This document shows positions 119 through 26,391 of a DNA stretch of 35,877 nt, one piece after another. The DNA is taken from assembly GCA_046352645.1 (NCBI GenBank), contig JBJTJV010000024.1, forward strand, positions 1 through 35,877, given 5' to 3'. Position 1 is the stretch's first letter, and every line of letters starts with the position of its first letter. Below the pieces are notes generated by a model. The model was not told where the DNA came from. It saw only the letters and a list, made by a program, of their open reading frames with translations, and ran no database searches. The DNA is from Chloroflexota bacterium (GTDB taxonomy: Bacteria > Chloroflexota > Limnocylindria > Limnocylindrales > CSP1-4). Both the position numbers and the translations under genes were made by a program.

Positions 119-907
119 ATGGGCCTGACACTGACGGCAGACCAGTTCAGCCTGGTCTACAACTTCTTCTCGCTGGCGATCGCCGCGATGGGCTCGGCGT
201 TCGTCTACTTCCTGCTGACGCGCACGAGCGTCCACGAGAAGTACCGGCTCGCGGTGACGATCTCGTCGCTCGTGGTGCTGGTGGCGTTCTACCACTACAT
301 GCGGATCTTCGATTCCTGGAACCACGCGTTCATCTACGACCCCCAGACCATGACCTACACGTCCGGCCTGCCGGGGACGACGCCCTTCAACGAGGGCTAC
401 CGCTACGTCGACTGGCTGATCACGGTGCCGCTGCTCCTCACGGAGCTCGTGCTCGTGCTCAAGCTGGACAGGATGCTCACGCGCTCGCTCCTGACCAAGC
501 TGATCATCGCCGCCGTCGCGATGATCGTCCTTGGCTACCCGGGCGAGATCTCGCCGACGACGGAGAAGCTCCTCGACTTCGGCCCGCGCGGCATCTGGGG
601 CATCCTCAGCACGATCCCGTTCCTCTACATCCTCTACGTCCTGTTCACCGAGCTCACGAAGGCGGCCAGCCGCCAGAGCGACGCGGTGAAGGACAAGATG
701 TTCTGGCTGCGGATCATCGTGGTGGCGACCTGGGGCTTCTACCCGATCGCCTACATCGTCCCGATGGTGATCGCCGACGCGGCGCTCGCCGAGGTGATCC
801 GCCAGGTGGGCTACTCGGTGGCGGACATCCTCGCCAAGCCGCTCTTCGGCCTCTTCATCGTGGGCATCGCGATGATCAAGTCCGAGGAGGAGAAGGCCGC
901 GGCCTGA
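119..907 (+). CDS. Microbial rhodopsin, xanthorhodopsin/actinorhodopsin-like light-driven proton pump (DTE motif)
   Basis: 7-TM pattern; helix C RYVDWLITVPLLLTE (D85/T89/E96 equivalents, Leu at the spectral-tuning site); helix B His (FYHY); helix G DILAK with retinal Lys; RGIWGILSTIPF in helix E. Confidence 0.95.
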   Translation: MGLTLTADQFSLVYNFFSLAIAAMGSAFVYFLLTRTSVHEKYRLAVTISSLVVLVAFYHYMRIFDSWNHAFIYDPQTMTYTSGLPGTTPFNEGYRYVDWLITVPLLLTELVLVLKLDRMLTRSLLTKLIIAAVAMIVLGYPGEISPTTEKLLDFGPRGIWGILSTIPFLYILYVLFTELTKAASRQSDAVKDKMFWLRIIVVATWGFYPIAYIVPMVIADAALAEVIRQVGYSVADILAKPLFGLFIVGIAMIKSEEEKAAA

Positions 908-10385: not shown

Positions 10386-11618
10386 CTACGCGTCCCCGGG
10401 CAGGTGCTCGAGCACGGTCGCGATGCCCTGGCCGACGCCGATGCACATCGCCGCCGCACCCCACCGGCCGCCGGTCCGGGCGAGCTCGTGGACGAGCATC
10501 GTGACGAGGCGCGCGCCGCTCATCCCGAGCGGGTGGCCGAGGGCGATCGCACCGCCGTTGGGGTTCACGCGCTCCGGATCGAGGCCGAGCTCGCGGATGC
10601 AGGCGACCGCCTGGCTCGCGAACGCCTCGTTCAGCTCCACGCACGCGAGTTCGTCCACGCCGACGCCGGCGCGCGCGAGCGCCGCCCGGAGCGCAGGCAC
10701 CGGCCCGATCCCCATGAGCGCGGGGTCCACGCCCGCGACCGCCGTGCTCACGATCCGGGCCATCGGCCGGAGCCCGAGCGCCCGCGCCCGGTCCGCGGCG
10801 ATGACCACGGCCGCGCCCGCACCGTCGTTCAGGCCGGAGCTGTTCCCCGCGGTCGCGGTCCCGCCCGGACCGAAGGCGGCGGGCAGGCGGGCGAGCGCCT
10901 CGGCGGTCGTCCCGGGGCGCGGGTGCTCGTCGTGCGCCACGCGCATCTCCGTGCCGTCGCGCGCGACGACCGGGACGGGGACGACCTGGCCGTCGAAGCG
11001 GCCGGCGGCGATCGCGGCCGCGGCCCGCCGCTGGCTCTCCGCCGCGAACGCATCCTGGTCCGCACGCGTGACGCCCCAGCGCTCGGCGACACGGTCGGCG
11101 GTCGCACCGAGCGGGAGCGTGTGGGCAGGATCGTGGCGCGGGTTCACGAGCCGCCAGCCGAGCGTGGTGTCCACGAGCGCCCGGTCGCCGCGCGGCCAGG
11201 CGGCATCGGGCTTGGGCAGGACCCAGGGCGCGCGGCTCATCGATTCCACGCCACCCGCGACGATCACGTCCGCGTCGCCGGCCATGATCGCGTGGGCCGC
11301 GGTGTTCAGCGCCTGGAGCCCCGAGCCGCACAGGCGGTTCACCGTCTGACCGGCCACCGTGACGGGGAAGCCCGCGAGGAGCGCGGCCATCCGGGCCACG
11401 TTGCGGTTCTCCTCGCCCGCGCCGTTCGCGTTGCCCAGGATCACGTCGTCCACGACCGCGGGGTCCACGCCGCCGCGCTCGACCGCCGCCCGCACGACGA
11501 GCGCGGCGCGGTCGTCCGGCCGGCCGGAGGCGAGCGCACCGCCGTGCCGTCCGATCGGCGTCCGGACGGCGCTCACGATCCACACCGCGCGGACGGGGCG
11601 ATCGAGGGCTCGCGACAT
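10386..11618 (-). CDS. Acetyl-CoA C-acyltransferase (PaaJ/PcaF-like thiolase)
   Basis: [52 protein letters not shown]; TACGAT 7 nt upstream of ATG 11618. Confidence 0.92.
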
Positions 11619-11747
11619 GCAGAGAATCGTACTCCGCCCCCCGGACCCCCGGGAATGGCCCGGCGGCAGATCGGGACCGGGGTCCGCTCCCCGGTGCCCC
11701 GCAAGTACCAGCGACGGCAGGGACCCCCGTGCGGTGGGATGGCGCCG

Positions 11748-12413
11748 ATGTCGCAGCACCGCCCCCACCACCACCGCATCCGCCGCATCCGGACCGCACC
11801 GGACGGCGCCGCCGCGCGCGGCCAGGGCCTCGTCGAGCTCGCCCTGATCCTGCCGATCTTCCTCGCCCTGACGATGGGCCTGCTCGAGTTCGCCCTCGCC
11901 TTCAACGCGACGCTCGGCGTCAACCGCGCCTCGCAGGACGGGGCACACGTCGCATCCGTCGCCGGGGCGCGCCGGGGCGCCGACTGCATGATCCTCGCGG
12001 AGATCGACGCGACGCTCATCACGCCCGCGGACACCGACCGGATCCGCCGCGTGGAGATCCAGCGGACCGCGCTCGCGGGGAACGTCGTCTACGCGCGGAA
12101 CACCTGGGTCCGCAGCGGCAGGACGACCTGCACGCTCATCGACGGATCCACGCTCGACGTCCCGTACACGCGCACGACCGAGGGCTACCCGGAGAGCCAG
12201 CGCTGCACGATCCTCGCGGGCTGCGCGACGCTCACGCCGGCGCGCTCCACGGTGGACAACGTGGGCGTGCTCGTGGAATACCGCTACGACTGGGTCACGC
12301 CGCTCGGGGCGCTCCTGCCGATGCTCGGCGAGGACGCGGTCGCGGGCGGCGCGAGCGGCCGCGGCTGGACCTTCCAGAAGCGGAGCGTCTTCCGCATGGA
12401 GCCCGACCTGTGA
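11748..12413 (+). CDS. tadE: TadE/TadG-family minor (pseudo)pilin, cassette 1 gene A
   Basis: Basic leader then RG|QGLVELALILP (class III signal, Glu+5) and hydrophobic helix; 4 Cys; start uncertain (11694, 11739 or 11748). Confidence 0.85.
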   Translation: MSQHRPHHHRIRRIRTAPDGAAARGQGLVELALILPIFLALTMGLLEFALAFNATLGVNRASQDGAHVASVAGARRGADCMILAEIDATLITPADTDRIRRVEIQRTALAGNVVYARNTWVRSGRTTCTLIDGSTLDVPYTRTTEGYPESQRCTILAGCATLTPARSTVDNVGVLVEYRYDWVTPLGALLPMLGEDAVAGGASGRGWTFQKRSVFRMEPDL

Positions 12414-13045
12414 GCCGGCTCCGGGCGTGGCGCGCCGCGGCGCGGGATGCACGCGGCCAGGGGATCGTGGAGATGACGCTCATCGTCCCGGTCCTCATGC
12501 TCCTGCTCACCGGGATGCTCGAGCTCGGCCTCGCGTACAACGACGTGCTCACGATCGGCTATGCGAGCCGCGAGGGCGCGCGCGTCGGCGCGGCGCTCGG
12601 CAACGGCGGGGCGCTCACCTGCACGACCGCGGACCCGGCGGGCGTGGACCCGACGATCGTCGCGTCGGTCTCGCGGATCCTCAGCTCGCCGGGGGCGGAC
12701 ATCGCCCTCGCGGACGTGCGCGAGATCCGCATCTACCGCGCGGGCGCGAACGGCAGCCAGCTCGGTGGCGCGGCGAACATCTGGCGATACGCGCCGGGCG
12801 CCGGCCCGGACGTCGATCCGGGTCCGGGCGCGGCACGCCTGGACTTCGCGGAGACGAGCCGCGGCTGGAACGCGTGCGCCCGTCTGAACGGCGCGACGCC
12901 CGATTCCGTGGGCGTCCGCGTGGAGTACGTCTACCGCCTCACCACCCCCCTCGCCGCGATGATCGCGATCTTCGGCGGCGAGCAGGCGACGACCATCACC
13001 CGGCGCGAGCAGACGGTGATGGCGATCAACCCGACCGCGCGCTGA
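12410..13045 (+). CDS. tadE: TadE-family minor pilin, cassette 1 gene B
   Basis: GTGA overlap with upstream stop; RG|QGIVEMTLIVP...ASREGARVGA. Confidence 0.88.
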   Translation: MSRLRAWRAAARDARGQGIVEMTLIVPVLMLLLTGMLELGLAYNDVLTIGYASREGARVGAALGNGGALTCTTADPAGVDPTIVASVSRILSSPGADIALADVREIRIYRAGANGSQLGGAANIWRYAPGAGPDVDPGPGAARLDFAETSRGWNACARLNGATPDSVGVRVEYVYRLTTPLAAMIAIFGGEQATTITRREQTVMAINPTAR

Positions 13046-15324
13046 TGGGCCGGCTGCGCACCCTCCTCGCGCGGGTCATCGGCAGCAGCCGGGGAACCGG
13101 CGCGCCCCGGGCCGGGGAGCGCGGCCAGGTGCTCGTGCTCTTCTCGATCATGGCCGCCGGCCTCATCGGCGCGGTGGCGGTGGTCACGGACGTCTCTTGG
13201 CTCTGGGTGAACCAGCAGCGGATGCAGCGCGCGGCCGACGCCGCGGCCCTCGCGGGCTCCGTCTACCTGCCGGGCGATCCGGCGTCGGCGTACGCGGCGG
13301 CACTCGCGGAGGCGGCCAAGAACGGGTTCGCGAACGGCACGGACGGGATCGTCATCACGCCCCGCCAGGACACGGCGAACCCGCGCCGCCTGAACGTCCG
13401 CGTGAGCGGGCCCGTGGGCACCTACTTCGCGCGTGTCTTCTGCGTCAGCCAGGACGCCTGCCTGGAGAGCGTGCCGGTGGCCGCCGCGAGCGCCGCGGAG
13501 TACACGCTGCCGGTCCCGATGGGCAGCCCGCAGAGCTACTACGGCGTGGGCTACCTCGTCGCGCCGGTCACCTCGACGTCCACGGAGACGATCTCCGGGT
13601 CCACCGCGTGGGGCCCGACCGCGTCCGTGGTGAGCGGCGGCACCTGGACGAACCCGGGCCAGGCGCGCGTGACGGACGGCGCCTACGCGACCTCCGGTAC
13701 GAACGGGCAGAACCAGCAGTGGACGAGCTTCGGCCTGCTCGCGGGGACCGCCGCGCCGCCGAACGATCCGTCCACCGCGATCCTCGGCATCGAGGTCCGC
13801 CTCGCGGGCGTGAGCTACAACGGCACGAGCACCGCCACGAGCTGCCAGGTCCGCGTGGAGATCTCGCCGGACGCCGGCGTCTCGTGGTCGAGCCCGGTCC
13901 TCACCGCGGCGCTCGGCGCGACGGCGACCGCGAACCGCATCGTCGGCAGCACGACGTCCACCGCCGGATGGGGCGCGCGGACGTGGCGCCGGACGGACCT
14001 CGCGGACGCGGCCCTCCGCGTCCGCCTCACCTGGATCGACGGCACGAGCGGCTGCGCGTCGACGCAGAACGTGCGCCTCGATGGGCTGGAGGTCCGGGCC
14101 CACTGGCGGACCACCCGCACGACGAGCACGACGACCTGGGAGCAGAGGAACGTCGTCGCGCCGGACGGGACCGTGCTCACGCCGCAGAACTTCTGGGGTG
14201 CCATGCAGAGCCAGGGCGCCCCGAGCCACCAGGGCGACATCTACATGACCCGCTACGACACCCGCGGCGCATCGAACAACCCGTCCTACGCCCCGGAGGA
14301 CTACTACAACTACGCCGTCGTGGTGCCCGCCGGAGCGACGAACGGCGAGGTCTGGATCTTCGACCCCGGCTTCTGCGATGCGCGCCGGAACTACGGAACA
14401 GGCGAGAACTGGGCGATCGGCGGTACCAACGGCTACACCACGGCCCAGGGGATCAGCAGCTACTACGACCTCTACGACACGCGCGAGACGCCCTACGACC
14501 GCACGGACGACGCCCTCGTCGCGAGCTCCGGCACGCTCTTCCAGCGGGTGAGCATGTACGACCGCCGCGCCTACGAGGACGTGCCCGACCCGGGGAACAC
14601 GCCACCGGGCGCGGGCACGAGCTGCGAGGGCCAGTCCTGGCACTTCGGCTGGTGGCGCCTGGCGAGCGGGCTGAGCGGCGGTGCGAACGGCCGGACCTAT
14701 CGCGTCCACACCTACAGCACCGAGCGCGCGAACCCGTCGGGCCAGCTGAACGCGACCGGCCTGAACGCCTTCGCGATCTGGTCGAAGGCGACGGGCGGGA
14801 GCCCGCGCGTCTACGGGATCGGGTCGATGCAGACGCTCGTGCGCCTTCCGCCGAGCGCGGCCTCGGAGTTCTACCTCGCACGGGTGGACGCGGTCCACGC
14901 CGGCAAGACGCTGGAGATCCAGCTCTGGGACCCGGGCGACACCGGGCAGATGTCCGGCACGCTGGAGATCCTGCGGCCCACGGCGCAAAGCTACACGCCG
15001 GTCGCGTTCTCCTGGAGCGCGGCACCCGGCGCCACGGCCTCGGGGGTCTCGGGCTGCGCAGGGAGCCGGGCGACCGGCGTGACATCCGTCGTCACGAACA
15101 GCGGCGGCAGCTCGAGCTTCAACGGGTGCTGGCTCACGATCAGCGTGGTCATCCCGCTCGACTACGCCGCGCCGCGACCGCTCTCGGACACCACCACGGC
15201 CGAGGGCGGCTGGTGGAAGATCCGCTACCGGATGGGCGCGGCGCCCGCGGGGACGGACTTCGCGACCGACGTCGCGACCTGGCAGGTGCAGGTCAAGGGC
15301 AGCCCGGTCCACCTCGTCCCCTGA
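13045..15324 (+). CDS. Large TadG-like pilin-anchored protein (putative tip adhesin), cassette 1 gene C, 759 aa
   Basis: TGATG overlap; ERG|QVLVLF...D...MQRAADAAALAG Tad N-terminal motif followed by a long Ser/Thr/Gly/Trp-rich beta-rich region with 8 Cys. Confidence 0.85.
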   Translation: MGRLRTLLARVIGSSRGTGAPRAGERGQVLVLFSIMAAGLIGAVAVVTDVSWLWVNQQRMQRAADAAALAGSVYLPGDPASAYAAALAEAAKNGFANGTDGIVITPRQDTANPRRLNVRVSGPVGTYFARVFCVSQDACLESVPVAAASAAEYTLPVPMGSPQSYYGVGYLVAPVTSTSTETISGSTAWGPTASVVSGGTWTNPGQARVTDGAYATSGTNGQNQQWTSFGLLAGTAAPPNDPSTAILGIEVRLAGVSYNGTSTATSCQVRVEISPDAGVSWSSPVLTAALGATATANRIVGSTTSTAGWGARTWRRTDLADAALRVRLTWIDGTSGCASTQNVRLDGLEVRAHWRTTRTTSTTTWEQRNVVAPDGTVLTPQNFWGAMQSQGAPSHQGDIYMTRYDTRGASNNPSYAPEDYYNYAVVVPAGATNGEVWIFDPGFCDARRNYGTGENWAIGGTNGYTTAQGISSYYDLYDTRETPYDRTDDALVASSGTLFQRVSMYDRRAYEDVPDPGNTPPGAGTSCEGQSWHFGWWRLASGLSGGANGRTYRVHTYSTERANPSGQLNATGLNAFAIWSKATGGSPRVYGIGSMQTLVRLPPSAASEFYLARVDAVHAGKTLEIQLWDPGDTGQMSGTLEILRPTAQSYTPVAFSWSAAPGATASGVSGCAGSRATGVTSVVTNSGGSSSFNGCWLTISVVIPLDYAAPRPLSDTTTAEGGWWKIRYRMGAAPAGTDFATDVATWQVQVKGSPVHLVP

Positions 15325-15333
15325 GCGCGGGGC

Positions 15334-15367
15334 CGGCCGAGGGCGGACCACGGGAGGGCCTCGGCCG
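15334..15367 (+). terminator. Hairpin after cassette 1
   Basis: cggccgagg-N16-cctcggccg; no U-tract. Confidence 0.3.
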
Positions 15368-15427
15368 ACGGTGCGGCCCGGTCCGCGCGCGCCGGTCGCA
15401 GGAGTAGTGCGTCGCGTATCCCGCCGA

Positions 15428-15457
15428 TTGACGGGCCGGTCGCTTCCGGTGTCTACT
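15428..15457 (+). promoter_or_regulatory. Possible promoter for cassette 2 (TTGACG-18-TCTACT)
   Basis: Near-consensus -35 in a lower-GC intergenic stretch; the -10 is imperfect. Confidence 0.35.
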
Positions 15458-15465
15458 ACGCCCCT

Positions 15466-16104
15466 GTGCCGAAGGTACTGCCCACACCCCGCCGGAAGTA
15501 CCGTATCCTTAGTCGCGATCGCGGTCAGGGAGTCGTCGAGGTCGCCCTCGTGCTCCCGATGGTGGTGGCCCTGATCTTCGCCGTGCTGGAATACGCGCTC
15601 GCCTTCCACGCGGTCCTGTCGGTCAACCAGGCCTCGCAGAACGCGGCGCACATCGCAGCGATCGTGGGGAACATGGACGGCGCGGACTGCATCATCCTCG
15701 AGGAGGTCGAGCGGACGATCGCGACGCCGGCCGACCGCGCCCGGGTCACCGAGGTCGCGATCCAGCGGACCGCCCTCGCCGGGAACATGGTCCACGCGGC
15801 GAACACGTGGGTGCGCACGGGCTCCACGACCTGCACGCATCCGGACGGATCGACGACCACGGTCCCGTACTCCATGACCTCGCAGGGATACCCCGACGCG
15901 CAGCGCTGCGTCGTGCTGTCGGGCTGCCCCACGATGACGCCGCCGCGCTCCACGGTGGACAACGTCGGCGTGATGGTCGCCTACGACCACCCGCGGACCA
16001 CGCCGCTCGGATCCGTCCTGCCGATGATCGGCGGCTCGGAGCCCGCGGACGACGGATGGACGTTCCGCAAGCGGAACATCTTCCGGATGGAACCGGTCCT
16101 GTGA
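15466..16104 (+). CDS. tadE: TadE-family minor pilin, cassette 2 gene A (paralog of 11748-12413)
   Basis: RG|QGVVEVALVLP; shares IQRTALAGN, NTWVR, RSTVDNVGV, FRMEP and the 4 Cys with the first copy. Confidence 0.85.
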   Translation: MPKVLPTPRRKYRILSRDRGQGVVEVALVLPMVVALIFAVLEYALAFHAVLSVNQASQNAAHIAAIVGNMDGADCIILEEVERTIATPADRARVTEVAIQRTALAGNMVHAANTWVRTGSTTCTHPDGSTTTVPYSMTSQGYPDAQRCVVLSGCPTMTPPRSTVDNVGVMVAYDHPRTTPLGSVLPMIGGSEPADDGWTFRKRNIFRMEPVL

Positions 16105-16730
16105 TCGGGTGGGGGGCGCTGCGCCGACGTGCGGATGCGCGCGGCCAGGGGATCGTGGAGTTCACCTATGCACTGCCGATCCTGCTCCTGATCCTCGTCG
16201 GGATGGTCGAGCTCGGCATGGCCTACAACGACACGCTCACGCTCGGGTACGCGACGCGCGAGGGCGCGCGCGTGGGCTCCGCGCTGGGCAACGGCGGCGC
16301 TGCCTCGTGCAATGGCGGTGCGGACCCTGCGGGCGTGGACGCCTCGATCGTCGCGGCAGTGCAGCGGATCATCATGTCGCCGGGCTCGGACGTGGAGCCG
16401 TCGCGCATCGCGGAGATCCGCATCTACCGCGCCACGGAGACCGGCGCGATCTCGGGCGGGCTCGTGAACCGCTGGCGCTGGGCGCCGGGGAGGGGCCCGG
16501 ACGTGGATCCCGGTGCCGGTGCCGCACGCCTGGACTTCGCCGAATCCGCCCGCGGCTGGTCGGCCTGCGGTCGGGTGGCGAACGGCAGGCCGGACGCGCT
16601 CGGCGTCCAGATCGTCTACAGCTACCGCCTCCGGACGCCGCTCGGGGCCCTCATGGCGATCTTCGGCCAGGACCAGGGTCCCACCTTCGAGCTGCGCGAC
16701 CAGACCGTCATGTCGCTGAACCCGGCCTGA
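16101..16730 (+). CDS. tadE: TadE-family minor pilin, cassette 2 gene B (paralog of 12410-13045)
   Basis: GTGA overlap; RG|QGIVEF...ATREGARVG; shares GPDVDPG.GAARLDFAE. Confidence 0.88.
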   Translation: MIGWGALRRRADARGQGIVEFTYALPILLLILVGMVELGMAYNDTLTLGYATREGARVGSALGNGGAASCNGGADPAGVDASIVAAVQRIIMSPGSDVEPSRIAEIRIYRATETGAISGGLVNRWRWAPGRGPDVDPGAGAARLDFAESARGWSACGRVANGRPDALGVQIVYSYRLRTPLGALMAIFGQDQGPTFELRDQTVMSLNPA

Positions 16731-18997
16731 GCGAACGCCGTCGACGCTTGCGCCTGCCCTCCCTCCTCCGCCCGTTCCGGTTCCTCCGTCGTGCCCCGAG
16801 CACGCGCGGCCGGCGACTGCGCGAGGAAGGCGGCCAGGTGCTCCTCGTGTTCGCGGTCGCCTCCACGGTCCTGCTCGGCGCGGCCGCGATCGTCACGGAC
16901 GTCTCGTGGCTGTGGGTGAACCGCCAGAAGATGCAGCGCGCGGCAGACGCGGCCGCGCTCGCCGGCGCGATCCACCTGCCGGGCGACCCGGCGACCGCGA
17001 TCGCGGTGGCGCGGGCGGAGGCCAGACGGAACGGGTACACCCACGGGAGCGGCGGCGTGATCGTGGATGCGGTCCGCGACCCGGCGAACCTGCGGCGCCT
17101 GCGGGTGACCCTGCGCGCGGAGGTCGGCACCCACTTCGCGCGCGTCTTCTGCGTCGATTCCGGGCCGTTCGCGGACGCGCCCTGCCTGGACACCGTGGAC
17201 ATCTCCGTCCGGTCCGCCGCCGAGTACACGCTGCCGGTGCCGATGGGCAGCCCCCAGAGCTACTTCGGCGTGGGCTACCTGGTGGACCGGACGACGAGCG
17301 CCAGCTCCACGACCGGCACGACCGGCTGGGGCCTGCCGAGCATGGCGCGGAGCGGCGGGACCTGGACGACGCCCACCAACGCCTACACGGTGAACAACCG
17401 CCACGCCACGGTCGCCACCACCGGGATGGCGCAGACGTGGACCGACTTCGGCCTGCTGACCACCTCGGGGGCACCGCCGGACAACCCCTCCGTGGTGGTG
17501 GACGGGATCCAGCTCCGCCTCCAGAACACGTCCCTCGCCGGGTCGGGCACGGCCACCGGGTGCCGGATCGCGGCCGAGATCTCCTGGAACGGCGGGACGA
17601 CCTGGTCCACGCCCCAGCTCTCCTCGACGCTCACGACGTCCACGTCCGCCGATCCGCTCGTGGGGACCGCCACGGGGATGAGCGGCTGGGGCGCACGCAC
17701 GTGGACGCGCGCGGACCTCGGCAACGGCCGCTTCGTCGTGCGCCTGACCTGGACGGACGGGACGGTCACCTGCCCGGCGACCCAGGCGGCGCGCCTCGAT
17801 GCGATCGAGGTGCAGGTCAACTACCGGTACTCCGTCCCGACGCGTGCCTGGGCACCCGGCCCGGTCATCGCCCCCGACGGGCGCACGCTCGCTCCCCAGA
17901 ACTTCTGGGCCGCGATGCAGAGCCAGGGGGCACCCAGCCAGCAGGGCGACATCTTCCTGACCGGCTACGACACGCGGACGTCGGTGGCCAACCCCCACTA
18001 CGCCCCGCTCGAGCAGTACCAGTACTCGATCACCGTCCCGGCGGGCGCCACGAACGGCGAGGTGTGGCTCTTCGACCCGGGGATGTGCGAGACCGGGACG
18101 GCGAGCGGACTCGGCGAGAACTGGTCCGTGGGCGGCAGCAACGGCAACGCGACGCGCCAGCCCGCGAGCTCGTTCTTCGATCTCTGGGACACGCGCGAGA
18201 CACCGTGGGAGACCGGGGACGACGTGCTCGTCGCGAGCTCCGGGACGACCTTCCGGCGGCAGCTCGGGTTCAGCGCCTGGACGGCATCGCTGCCGTCGGG
18301 GATGACCGACTGCACGGGGACGAGCTGGCACCTGGGCTGGTGGCGGCTGGCGAACGGCCTCATCGGCGGCGCGACCGGGCGGACCTACCGCCTCCACACG
18401 TTCACCACGGACAGGAGCGCACCCTCGGACCAGGTGAACACGACGGCGCTGAACGCGTTCGCCATCTGGACCCGGGCGGTCGGCGGGAGCCCCCGGATCG
18501 CCGGGAGCGGCGCGATGGAGGCGTACGTGCGCCTGCCGGCGAGCACGGCGTCCGAGTTCTACCTCGCGCGCATCGACGCGGTCCACGCGGGGAAGACCCT
18601 CGGCATCGACCTCTGGGACCCGGGGGATACGGGATCGCTCGCGGCGCGCCTGGAGATCCTCCGCCCGACGGCGACCGGCTACGCGGTCACGCCGTTCTCG
18701 TGGACCGCGGAGCGGGTCTCGTCGGGGGGCTCGTCGTGCACGGGGCTCGCGGGGACGAACGCCACGTCGGTGACGACGAACACCGGCGGGACGTCGGTCT
18801 TCAACGGCTGCTGGCTGCGCATCAGCGTGACGATCCCGAACGACTACGCCGCCCCGGTCCCGATCTCCGAGACGACGACGAACGAGGGCGGCTGGTGGAA
18901 GATCCGCTACACGATGGGCTCCGGGTCCGGCAACGCCACCGATCTCACCACCTGGCAGGTGAGCGTCCGGGGCAGCCCCGTTCACCTCGTCCCCTGT
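16727..18997 (+). CDS. Large TadG-like protein, cassette 2 gene C (paralog of 13045-15324); non-canonical start, and the expected stop reads TGT so the ORF as written runs to 19630
   Basis: GG|QVLLVF...MQRAADAAALAG; colinear with gene 1C up to GSPVHLVP; the only candidate starts before the cleavage site are near-cognate (CTG 16727 in a CTGA overlap, or TTG 16748). Confidence 0.75.
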
Positions 18998-18999
18998 CG

Positions 19000-19022
19000 G
19001 CGGCCCGGGCCCCCCGGGCCGC
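19000..19022. terminator. Perfect 10-bp GC hairpin between convergent genes
   Basis: gcggcccggg-ccc-cccgggccgc just after the position of the expected stop of gene 2C. Confidence 0.5.
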
Positions 19023-19031
19023 GCGCCCGCG

Positions 19032-19799
19032 TCAGACGGGCGCGGTGCGCCAGTGGAGGAGCGCCGGTCGGCAGCGCGCGAGCTCGGCCGCATCGGGCTG
19101 CGCGCGGTGGTGGCCGGGCTCGATGCGGCCGGCGGCGGCGAACGGCGCTTCCGTCACGAGCCCCGCCCGGACCGCCAGCCGGTCGATCTCCGCGGTCCCG
19201 CCGGCACCCGCGTCCGCGAGCGCGTAGGCGGCATTCACGGCGAGGAGCGTGCGCCGCTCCGGGTCCGCCGCATCCCGGGCAGCGTCGGCCGCGTCCGCGA
19301 GGAGCGCTCCCAGCTGCCGCACGACGCGCCCGTGCGTGTCGCCGACGGGGACCGGGTCGCAGCCTGCGGCCGCGAGGACCGCGAGGACCGCGTCCGCGCG
19401 CACGGGATCCGCGTCCGCGGGGATCGCGAGCTCGGTCGGCGTGGCCGCGCCGCCGTCCGCCGCCGGGTGCAGCTCCAGGCCCACGAGGCGGCCGGCGCGG
19501 CGCGGCAGCGGCACGAGGTCATGCAGCGTCGAGGCGGCGAGGAGGGCAGCGACCGGCGTCCCGGCAGGCAGCGCGGCGAGGAGGGCGGCGAGCAGGGCCA
19601 CGTCCGCCTGCGCGTCCGCCTGCGCGGTGACCGTGCGCGCCCCGACGATCGCGAGCGCCAGGCCCGCCGGCGGATGCGCCGGGTCCGCGATCGGCACGGG
19701 CGTGACCCCGCGCGCGTCCGCGAGGAGCGCGGCGAGGCGCGGCCCCGGGGCCCCCGCGACACCGATGACGACGCTGCCGGACGCCGCTGCGTCCGTCAT
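19032..19799 (-). CDS. Degenerate 3-hydroxyacyl-CoA dehydrogenase-like protein (possible pseudo-enzyme or decaying gene)
   Basis: ATGA-coupled to enoyl-CoA hydratase; remnants RLVGLELHP, PVPVGDTHGRVVRQ and NAAYAL...EIDR...APF match the family pattern, but GxGxxG and the catalytic His motif are lost. Confidence 0.55.
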   Translation of the reverse strand: MTDAAASGSVVIGVAGAPGPRLAALLADARGVTPVPIADPAHPPAGLALAIVGARTVTAQADAQADVALLAALLAALPAGTPVAALLAASTLHDLVPLPRRAGRLVGLELHPAADGGAATPTELAIPADADPVRADAVLAVLAAAGCDPVPVGDTHGRVVRQLGALLADAADAARDAADPERRTLLAVNAAYALADAGAGGTAEIDRLAVRAGLVTEAPFAAAGRIEPGHHRAQPDAAELARCRPALLHWRTAPV

Positions 19800-20617
19800 C
19801 GGCCGCGCCAGGCGGGTGGGCGCTTCTCCAGGAACGCGCGCATCCCCTCCGCCTGGTCCTCCGTGTCGAAGAGGTCCGTGAAGAGCTCGCGCTCGTAGAC
19901 GAGCCCGTCCGCGAGCGTCAGCTCCGCGGCCGCGTCGATGGCGCGCACGGCCGCCGCGACGGCGAGCGGCGGACCGGCCGCGATCCGCTCGGCGAGCACG
20001 AGCGCCTCGGTGAGCGTCTCCGCCGCGGGCACGAGCCGCGACACGAGGCCGATCCGGGCGGCCTCCTCGGCGGGGACGTGGCGCCCCGTGAGGACGATCT
20101 CCATGGCGCGCGCCTTGCCCACGGCGCGCACGAGCCGCTGGGTGCCGCCGATGCCGGGGATGATGCCGAGCCGGATCTCCGGCAGCCCGAGCACCGCGTC
20201 GTCCCCGGCGACGACGAGGTCGCAGGCGAGCACGAGCTCGCAGCCCCCGCCGAGCGCGTAGCCACGGACCGCCGCGATGAGCGGCGTCTCCACCGCGTCG
20301 ATGCGGTCCCAGGCGGCGAACGGGCGATCGCGCCGGATCCCGTCCGCGGTCCGGGGCGCCATCTCCGCGATGTCCGCACCGGCCGCGAAGGCCCGCTCGC
20401 CCGCGCCGGTGATGACGATGGCGCGGCAGGCGGGGTCCGCATCGAGCGCGACGAGCGCGTCCGCGAGCTCGCCGATGGTGCGCACGTCGATCGCGTTCCG
20501 GACCTCCGGGCGGTCGATGGTGACGCAGGCGACACCGGGGAGGTCGCGGCCGTCCGCGGGCAGGGCCGCGGGGAGGTCCACCCGGATCCGGGGCCGGTCG
20601 GTGGCGGGCACGTCCAT
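19796..20617 (-). CDS. Enoyl-CoA hydratase (PaaF-like crotonase)
   Basis: RAFAAGADI, GYALGGGCEL, PEIRLGIIPGIGGTQRL, EGMRAFLEKR; AGGAG RBS. Confidence 0.93.
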   Translation of the reverse strand: MDVPATDRPRIRVDLPAALPADGRDLPGVACVTIDRPEVRNAIDVRTIGELADALVALDADPACRAIVITGAGERAFAAGADIAEMAPRTADGIRRDRPFAAWDRIDAVETPLIAAVRGYALGGGCELVLACDLVVAGDDAVLGLPEIRLGIIPGIGGTQRLVRAVGKARAMEIVLTGRHVPAEEAARIGLVSRLVPAAETLTEALVLAERIAAGPPLAVAAAVRAIDAAAELTLADGLVYERELFTDLFDTEDQAEGMRAFLEKRPPAWRGR

Positions 20618-25989: not shown

Positions 25990-25995
25990 CCGAAC

Positions 25996-26073
25996 ACGGG
26001 AAGCGAAGACGCGCGGTCCATCCGATCGGTCGCCTGAACGGACCGCGCCGAGCAGTGGCGAGCCCGGTCCCGT
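25996..26073 (+). ncRNA. c-di-GMP-II-class riboswitch aptamer (possibly a variant such as c-di-GMP-II-GAG)
   Basis: P1 acggga/tcccgt; GGAAGCGAAGA segment; stem gcgcggtcc/ggaccgcgc; loop GGTCGCCTG whose tcgcc can pseudoknot with ggcga in GAGCAGTGGCGAGCCCGG; lies 5' of a CDS. Confidence 0.75.
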
Positions 26074-26100
26074 CCGCCGAACGAGGACCTGCGCGCGCCC

Positions 26101-26391
26101 ATGACCGTCTCCCTGCTCCTGCTCGTCTCCGCCCAGGCATTCGACTACCTGAGCTTCCTCGTCATGGCAGGCCGCCACGGCCTCGCCGCGGAGGCGAACC
26201 CGCTCGTGGTCAGCCTCGCGGAGCAGTACGGCCTGCCGGGCGTGACGGCAGCGAAGCTCGCGGTCGTGGCGCTCGTGGCGCTCACCGCGATCGTCATCTC
26301 GCCGCAGCGCCGGAAGGTCGCGGCGGTCGTGCTCCTCGCGGGGATCGGGACCGGGGCGCTCGGCGGCATCTCCAACGTGGCGTCGATCTGA
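26101..26391 (+). CDS. Small membrane protein, DUF5658-like
   Basis: Three hydrophobic segments with D...G...EANP...K motif; GAGGA upstream. Confidence 0.75.
   Translation: MTVSLLLLVSAQAFDYLSFLVMAGRHGLAAEANPLVVSLAEQYGLPGVTAAKLAVVALVALTAIVISPQRRKVAAVVLLAGIGTGALGGISNVASI

Follow-up and report, generated by a model that had tools for sequence, protein, structure and literature searches.

Two tandem minor-pilin cassettes in a Chloroflexota contig

We analyzed a 35,877-nucleotide stretch of DNA, here called the window, from a Chloroflexota bacterium (Limnocylindria; Limnocylindrales; CSP1-4; assembly GCA_046352645.1, contig JBJTJV010000024.1). Our subject is a set of six genes that form two consecutive copies of a three-gene unit related to the minor pilins TadE and TadG of the Tad (type IVc) pilus. 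The window is contig C75 of a metagenome-assembled genome (MAG; G000 in our set) of 2.94 Mb in 372 contigs, which is 80.6% complete with 1.09% contamination and has a GC content of ~74%. Since raw lists of open reading frames (ORFs) are noisy at this GC content, frames were chosen by third-position GC (GC3) together with a model of codon log-odds that had been trained on this genome. The genes, named A, B, and C in cassettes 1 and 2, are as follows (aa, amino acids).

11739-12413, + strand: A1, TadE-like minor pilin, 224 aa; PF07811, 44 bits
12410-13045, + strand: B1, second TadE-like minor pilin, 211 aa; PF07811, 45.7 bits
13045-15324, + strand: C1, large TadG-like modular pilin, 759 aa; PF13400, 35.4 bits
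15466-16104, + strand: A2, TadE-like minor pilin, 212 aa; PF07811, 39.6 bits
16101-16730, + strand: B2, TadE-like minor pilin, 209 aa; PF07811, 50.2 bits
16748-18997, + strand: C2, TadG-like modular pilin with a TTG start, 749 aa to the expected stop; PF13400, 43.3 bits

All six genes score above the Pfam gathering cut-offs (22.9 bits for TadE, PF07811; 22.3 bits for Tad, PF13400). Two other starts are available to A1, an ATG at 11748 (221 aa), which was used in a preliminary description of this DNA, and an ATG at 11655 (252 aa). The paralogous proteins of the two cassettes are 59% (A1/A2), 62% (B1/B2), and 56% (C1/C2, 740 residues) identical, and at the DNA level the cassettes share 69.3% identity across 3.58 kb. 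A and B are 31% identical to each other. Within the units the genes are tightly joined: the GTG start of B1 overlaps the A1 stop in a GTGA, the same overlap is found at A2/B2, and B1 and C1 meet at TGATG, while B2 and C2 are separated by a 17-nt gap that is followed by the TTG start. Taken together, the tandem, intact pair of Tad minor-pilin cassettes is real.

Beyond the N-terminal Tad domain, the remaining ~690 residues of C1 and C2 had no Pfam match. The vWA and Tad_C (PF09977) domains of many TadG proteins were likewise not matched in the window cassettes at E ≤ 0.1. NCBIfam returned nothing above cut-off; for TIGR03816/NF041390 (Rv3654c/Rv3655c), C1 and C2 scored 24.7 and 32.5 bits against a cut-off of 50.95, and B2 scored 14.6 against 40. 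The family itself is large. At least 753 full-length homologues of C1 were found among the 8,000 best candidates scored, and those with a name are called “pilus assembly protein TadG-related” and come from Chloroflexota or Candidatus Limnocylindrales MAGs. At E ≤ 1e-10, A has 118 homologues and B has 233.

Cleavage sites, the glutamate at position +5, and cysteines

The predicted cleavage sites of cassette 1 are RG|QGLVE in A1, RG|QGIVE in B1, and RG|QVLVL in C1, with the pipe character marking the bond that would be cut, and Gly-Gln is present at the predicted site in all six proteins. We aligned 41 A, 40 B, and 49 C sequences and counted residues on ungapped rows. Gly at −1 and Gln at +1 were invariant among the B and C rows and were present in all but one of the A rows. 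Glu at +5 was found in 40/40 A rows and 40/40 B rows, both window copies included, and in 0/49 C rows, where position +5 is always I, L, V, M, or A (49/49). In type 4 filaments, tip complexes are capped by a subunit that lacks Glu5, and assembly begins from this complex, according to a review (PMC10191384). By this Glu5 criterion C would be the capping subunit, because it has no Glu at +5. As expected, Glu in A and B with its absence in C is the pattern predicted for a filament tip complex.

Every cysteine of cassette 1 (eight in C1, four in A1, and two in B1) aligns with a cysteine in cassette 2. Cys 337, 444, 527, 671, and 695 of C1 are each retained in 98% of rows or more, and C1 likely has three conserved Cys pairs, which would fit an exported protein.

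The preliminary description had proposed one three-gene unit present twice in tandem on the + strand, with tightly coupled genes, class III G|Q sites in all six products, retained Cys positions, and no Tad core genes in the window. These claims hold, with the 17-nt gap at B2/C2 as the single junction that does not overlap.

A Tad machine is encoded on other contigs

A Pfam scan of the 32 other ORFs in the window found no tad core genes. The machine genes lie elsewhere in the genome. The gene for the CpaF ATPase (T2SSE, 184.5 bits) is split; it runs off the end of contig C257, and its C-terminal end opens contig C310, where tadB and tadC (T2SSF, 71.1 and 65.8 bits) follow. A TadZ-like gene with a REC domain precedes cpaF on C257. 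In the relatives G010, G007, and G001, the genes run in the same order without a break, as response regulator, x, tadZ, cpaF, tadB, and tadC, and no TadE or TadG genes were found in the 20-kb core tad stretches of these three genomes. An A24 prepilin peptidase (PF01478, 54.1 bits, 211 aa) is encoded on C220. The Flp pilin candidate is a 57-aa ORF on C225 whose G|QGLAEY site is the same cleavage motif as that of the cassettes, and G007 has two flp-like ORFs beside tadZ that are homologous to it. No secretin was found in this incomplete genome, and an RcpC-like match was weak only.

Modules of minor pilins plus a large TadG-like protein had been envisaged as sitting away from the pilus machine. 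The presence of tadZ, cpaF, tadB, tadC, the A24 peptidase gene, and the Flp candidate on other contigs bears this out. The preliminary description had named a genome without Tad machinery as grounds for refutation, and that condition does not apply. The genome also contains one further TadE-TadE-Tad set. This third, different cassette (C103:2837-5304) encodes proteins of 144 aa (TadE), 170 aa (TadE), and 504 aa (Tad) beside a gene for a 340-aa membrane protein. Of 40 other same-genus genomes searched, only 1 has a close homologue (68%) of the large gene.

Two observations on these contigs stand apart from the cassettes. The tadC gene (C310:1432-2352) is broken by one in-frame TAG into ORFs of 209 and 64 aa. 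Because G010, G007, and G001 also match tadC in two pieces with a gap of ~100 nt, the interruption may be a conserved feature and not damage. On contig C38 (3-2496), two genes whose products have type IV pilin-like N-termini come after a partial T2SSF gene (PilC/GspF-like). The GC content of C38 (0.717) is inside the range of the genome, and the contig is either part of a second filament system or mis-binned.

Predicted structure of the large subunit

We modeled full-length C1, with a mean predicted local distance difference test score (pLDDT) of 86.4 and a predicted template modeling score (pTM) of 0.67. The model has a helix at residues 26-72, a small β domain, long Thr-rich strands at 171-186 and 347-368, and an all-β C-terminal region. 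The two Thr-rich strands flank a separate domain at residues 183-356. The two regions considered below are as follows.

13591-14112, + strand: C1 jelly-roll insert (residues 183-356), predicted CBM32/discoidin-like fold, candidate ligand-binding head
14146-15321, + strand: C1 C-terminal all-β region (residues 368-759), two predicted β-sandwiches, conserved

In a VIA-align search against representatives, residues 183-356 matched many chains of the CBM32/35/36, discoidin, and F-lectin types at Z 8.0-9.8. The best matches were 2yc2_A (Z 9.8; root mean square deviation 2.7, 119 residues aligned) and the CBM32 of AlyQ (Z 9.7 for 5xnr_A, and 9.6). No sequence membership in CBM32 or discoidin families was found for this segment, which had no Pfam match and no sequence match in the PDB. 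We read the model, with moderate strength, as a CBM32/discoidin-like jelly roll. Residues 181-300 are also the least conserved segment of the protein, with a family conservation of 0.40-0.53 and a C1/C2 identity of 0.37-0.47, compared to 0.6-0.83 for conserved blocks outside the insert.

Folded alone, the 392 residues of the C-terminal region (368-759) gave a pLDDT of 88.6 and a pTM of 0.86. No clear solved relative was found. The best VIA-align match had a Z of 7.5 (6i56_D, 97 aligned; a sandwich of the XepA/YomS/PirA/GOLD type), Foldseek template modeling (TM) scores did not exceed 0.20, and a profile search gave no PDB sequence match at E ≤ 1. For this model no known fold can be assigned, and a new fold is likewise not demonstrated. 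With the full-length model, Foldseek returned only matches at TM ~0.1, all of them to multi-domain β proteins. Structural look-alikes in the ESM Atlas were Tad-domain proteins from Chloroflexota and, at 456 aa, from Actinomycetota (TM 0.79 and 0.68), and 12% of the members of the look-alike cluster have Tad_C. As a lead, the models suggest that the C-terminal region may be a shared TadG body and the jelly roll a lineage-specific insert.

We also predicted a complex of mature A1, mature B1, and residues 28-372 of C1. It scored 0.60, the two partner-replaced controls scored 0.00 and 0.00, and the control in which A1 was replaced scored 0.67, a set of scores that favors neither binding nor its absence.

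Distribution in relatives and a mosaic of base and head

A C homologue was present in 26/36 same-genus genomes, compared to 0/24 genomes (1.0-1.4 Mb) of a sister family. All five near-complete relatives that were checked have a single tadB/tadC pair, which sits on a different contig from the cassettes. Two to four PF13400 genes per genome were found in five relatives. We examined the loci of 14 of the 26 positive genomes, which were chosen for multiple hits or long contigs and are not a random sample. Seven of them contain two tandem A-B-C sets (G010, G012, G021, G013, G036, G030, and G011), G026 has an A-B-C set followed by a second C, and the remaining six have a single set. In the nearest relative, G007 (~60% identity), a single set occupies the syntenic thiolase/enoyl-CoA hydratase locus.

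Self-comparison of the double loci revealed that the DNA similarity between tandem cassettes extends from the upstream region through A and B into only the first ~430-500 nt of C. These tracts are 97.4% identical over 2,031 nt in G010 (L046, C3 8859-10886 versus 12697-14727) and 97.5% over 1,984 nt in G030 (L052, C4 8251-10231 versus 12068-14049). They are more diverged in G012 (77.7% over 1,799 nt), G036 (76.5% over 1,795 nt), and G021 (74.0% over 1,791 nt). The two A proteins of G010 are identical, as are its two B proteins. The mature C proteins of this pair are 100% identical over residues 1-40, 93% over 41-80, 80% over 81-120, and 17-55% thereafter.

In a tree of C, the heads fall into two deep clades, X and Y (support of 100 in the Shimodaira-Hasegawa-like approximate likelihood ratio test, SH-aLRT). 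Both window copies and G007 are in one of them, and C1 and C2 of the window pair together (SH-aLRT 91). The A genes group according to genome rather than according to the type of the adjacent head. Forcing the A genes linked to Y heads into one clade cost 128 log-likelihood units (p = 8.9e-31 in the approximately unbiased test). In this test the constrained group was named after the tree had been seen, three head types were taken from fragmentary C genes by identity only, and four long or fragmentary rows were left out.

These comparisons point to a base that has been homogenized between tandem cassettes beneath heads that have diverged, either by gene conversion or by head swapping. The homogenized A, B, and start of C together with the deeply divergent heads are thus consistent with a constant base under a variable head, and the mosaic suggests how such tips might diversify. 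One could go further and read the tandem cassettes as a tip-diversification locus maintained by recombination, in which gene conversion would keep A, B, and the C helix uniform and X and Y heads could be swapped at a conserved junction block. We consider this possible but doubtful. Under it, the constant base would have to fit the one Flp filament, the window would hold two X-type heads with diverged jelly rolls, and one Tad pilus could present different glycan- or particle-binding tips.

A model of alternative tips on a single Tad pilus

We propose that each cassette encodes a three-protein minor-pilin module that primes and tips a single Tad pilus and that the two cassettes provide alternative heads. 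We put the probability of this reading at roughly 0.68. In it we infer processing, complex formation, location at the tip, binding of glycans or surfaces, and alternative use of the cassettes. A, B, and C would be synthesized as prepilins, and the A24 peptidase, whose gene lies on another contig, would cleave each of them after the conserved Gly. Their hydrophobic N-terminal helices would bundle at the membrane and prime assembly, and Flp pilin would then be polymerized underneath by the unlinked TadZ-CpaF-TadB-TadC machine. C, without Glu5, would cap the filament, with the jelly roll and the conserved β-sandwich body forming an adhesive head at the tip. The two cassettes would thereby supply the same pilus with two alternative heads. 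The family membership of the six proteins, their motif pattern, the machine genes, and the recurrent layout in relatives are observations on which this model builds, as is the predicted fold of C.

Several findings weigh against this model. The Z scores of the jelly roll (8-9.8) are barely above the 7-8 that are typical of unmatched models, and the fold is common and does not show a function. The Flp candidate matches PF04964 at 24 bits, below the Pfam cut-off of 32.2. The genome is just 80.6% complete, and its Tad machine genes are on short contigs. In 6/7 of the relatives with double cassettes, one or more genes are in several pieces or interrupted by internal TGA stops, so extra copies may often decay, or those MAGs may carry errors. 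The window cassettes have diverged evenly and do not have the constant-base mosaic of the relatives. The ratios of nonsynonymous to synonymous substitution rates (dN/dS, NG86 method) are between 0.5 and 0.7 (A, 0.70; B, 0.51; C, 0.58) and locally approach 1 at C1 residues 209-268 and 451-517, on dS values that are unreliable at ~96% GC3. The assembled window lacks a stop codon for C2, and no RNA run was found among the public sequencing runs that contain the stretch.

The strongest competing explanation is that both cassettes are functionally equivalent duplicates that prime Tad assembly, with the divergence of the heads reflecting neutral drift and not binding specificity. The core tad loci of G010, G007, and G001 have no TadE or TadG genes of their own, and therefore some unlinked cassette must prime. 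The pairing of C1 and C2 within the same head clade (SH-aLRT 91), the even divergence along the cassette, and an overall dN/dS below 1 also fit simple redundancy. However, the lectin-like insert is where C1 and C2 differ most (identity 0.37-0.47 versus 0.6-0.83 elsewhere), and dN/dS, a weak measure here, locally approaches 1 at residues 209-268. In related assemblies both cassettes persist at ~90% identity, and relatives have two deeply divergent head clades on a homogenized base. On balance, we regard redundant priming as unlikely.

It is somewhat less likely still that A, B, and C are not pilus parts and instead form a short pseudopilus or membrane-anchored surface proteins without Flp polymerization, such as a secretion device or a wall-spanning adhesin. 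In the five relatives checked for tadB and tadC, cassettes and machine are not linked, no secretin was found, and C38 has another T2SSF gene together with two genes of the type IV pseudopilin-like kind. In addition, classical TadG is listed as part of a cytoplasmic-membrane subcomplex and not as a pilin, in a table of the review (PMC10191384). Against this, G at −1 and Q at +1 are strict in all three families, with E at +5 in A and B and absent in C, and the Flp candidate has the same cleavage motif. A system of the C38 type is not general among relatives, because the five that were checked have only tadB and tadC as T2SSF genes above cut-off.

The end of cassette 2 and the intercassette spacer

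A third alternative takes cassette 2 to be a decaying duplicate with the loss of the C2 stop as its first lesion. Positions 18995-18997 of the window read TGT, and the C2 frame stays open to 19630, 211 codons on, through the antisense of a convergent ORF. The preliminary description had C2 ending at 18997, which does not agree with the window as assembled. We therefore compared positions 18600-19400 with Logan contigs from four public freshwater or lake metagenome runs of two studies. Position 18997 was an A, which gives TGA, in the contigs of 4/4 runs. Because all four runs give TGA, the stop-less C2 would be an assembly error or a rare variant, two options that contigs cannot separate.

The contigs of the public runs share five more differences from the window, at 19000, 19040, 19045, 19047, and 19054; run X2 shows only the first of them, its contig ending near 19006. 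In one run, a 32-nt opposite-strand joint was seen at 19095/19127. This suggests that the assembly is locally unreliable or mixes strains at 18997-19127.

The rest of cassette 2 appears intact. C2 keeps all 86 family-invariant columns, and third-position GC across the gene is 0.95-0.99. Cassette-2 orthologues occur in other assemblies, with P0146 and P0148 at 94% and 90% to A2 and P0267 at 91% to B2, and they sit beside cassette-1 orthologues at 87-91%. Although second copies look broken in several relatives and the frame here runs 211 codons beyond TGT, decay of cassette 2 is very improbable given the TGA in 4/4 runs of two studies, the 86/86 invariant columns and all aligned cysteines retained, the third-position GC of 0.95-0.99, and the A2 and B2 orthologues at 90-94%. 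Pseudogenization of cassette 2, a refuting condition in the preliminary description, is not borne out, with the stop loss seen in 0/4 runs.

The noncoding features around the two C genes are as follows.

15325-15465, + strand: intercassette spacer, 141 nt
18990-19040, no strand assigned: GC-rich hairpin of 10 bp, situated between the position expected for the C2 stop and the end of the convergent ORF (19032-19799, − strand)

A hairpin and a possible promoter had been described between the units, and the two tips had been taken to be separately regulated. Neither claim is borne out. The spacer folded no better than shuffled sequences (z 0.32 and 0.93). Scans of 11400-19900, the spacer included, found no sigma-70-like promoters and one terminator-like site, which lies inside C1 and is at chance level; none was in the spacer. 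No Rfam match was found in 11500-15600 at E ≤ 1. The hairpin downstream of C2 has a folding energy of −31.6 kcal/mol (z −1.62), which was equaled by 12/200 shuffles and is weak.

The convergent ORF (19032-19799, − strand) encodes an Ala-rich protein of 255 aa, and its start overlaps the enoyl-CoA hydratase stop by 4 nt. It had no Pfam match, and tblastn (E ≤ 1e-8) found no match to it in the corresponding gap of ~1.25 kb in the syntenic G007 locus.

Comparison with known systems

The closest precedent is the Kil pilus of Myxococcus xanthus (Herrou et al. 2025), for which four paralogous kilLMN clusters, TadE/TadF/TadG-like, are reported as interchangeable Tips, as shown genetically (PMC12075869). 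The C-terminal domain of KilN forms the extremity. The authors extend the Tip idea by structure prediction to the TadE/F/G proteins of other bacteria; Chloroflexota and Actinobacteria are unmentioned in the sections consulted. The cassettes described here resemble Kil Tip1-4 in being three-gene sets homologous to TadE/TadF/TadG (KilL/KilM/KilN), several paralogous sets per genome with one Tad machine, mostly away from it. In both, the large TadG-like protein combines a pilin-like base with a variable distal domain without a solved relative, and many disulfides are predicted.

There are also differences. As the same paper reports, matches of the Kil tip1-4 HMM (hidden Markov model) search are restricted to Myxococcota (PMC12075869), and for this reason we assign the Chloroflexota cassettes no Kil sequence membership. 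Kil tips are described there as acting in contact-dependent killing with a type III secretion system (T3SS*), whereas nothing alike was seen in the Chloroflexota window; a Kil-like killing role for these cassettes, which we considered, was rejected, since nothing in the window or the analyses supports it. The Chloroflexota host has no secretin found, its sets are in direct tandem, and the head has a CBM32-like jelly roll. The A-B-C heterotrimer of the Chloroflexota cassettes is putative.

A second parallel is provided by Streptococcus sanguinis, in which a lectin module of PilC binds glycans within a tip-located minor-pilin complex (PMC9934059). The likeness to PilA/PilB/PilC lies in the modular build of the pilins, in which an adhesive module is joined to a pilin moiety, and in the monoderm host (PMC9934059). 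That system is a type IVa pilus and not a Tad pilus and uses other protein families, and glycan binding was measured there, whereas here there is a resemblance of fold only. Classical TadE/TadF/TadG and Caulobacter CpaL share the N-terminal PF07811/PF13400 domains with our proteins (PMC10191384). The genome also has the TadV-type A24 peptidase, CpaF ATPase, and TadB/TadC platform of known tad loci. Unlike the classical genes, the Chloroflexota genes are outside the tad locus, are duplicated, and have no vWA or Tad_C by Pfam.

The preliminary description had put the cassettes forward as an undescribed system. This does not hold, as interchangeable, unlinked Tad tips were published in 2025 (PMC12075869) and NCBI already names the family “TadG-related.” Because the design has been described in Myxococcus, we regard the locus as a new example and not as a new kind of system. 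The details that are new here are the lectin-like insert and the family-wide Glu5 pattern.

Our literature search on Limnocylindria and the Tad pilus found no paper. Tad pili in Chloroflexota are reportedly named in the titles and abstracts of cryo-electron tomography papers.

If our model is correct, the adaptable Tad tip design would extend from predatory Myxococcota to an uncultured freshwater Chloroflexota lineage in which no secretin gene was found. It offers parts that can be tested, namely, a Glu5-less capping TadG-like pilin, a variable lectin-like insert, and a large C-terminal domain without a Pfam family. If the heads bind polysaccharides or particles, they would be relevant to the attachment of these abundant lake bacteria to algae, particles, or one another.

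Flanking genes and other features of the window

Both flanks of the cassettes consist of housekeeping genes. One has genes for thiolase, a protein of Fe-S assembly, and a protein with a Lon-N domain; the other has genes for enoyl-CoA hydratase and hydrolases. A c-di-GMP-II-GCG (cyclic di-GMP) riboswitch variant at 25990-26079 (+ strand) matched RF03170 over its full length at 64.5 bits, compared to a gathering score of 47.9. It is directly 5′ of a 96-aa hydrophobic ORF (26101-26391, + strand) with a weak DUF5658 match and is ~7 kb from the cassettes and unlinked to them. Near the start of the window (119-907, + strand), a bacteriorhodopsin-like gene (PF01036, 136.3 bits) lies beside a P-type cation ATPase gene, which fits a light-using freshwater Chloroflexota lineage.

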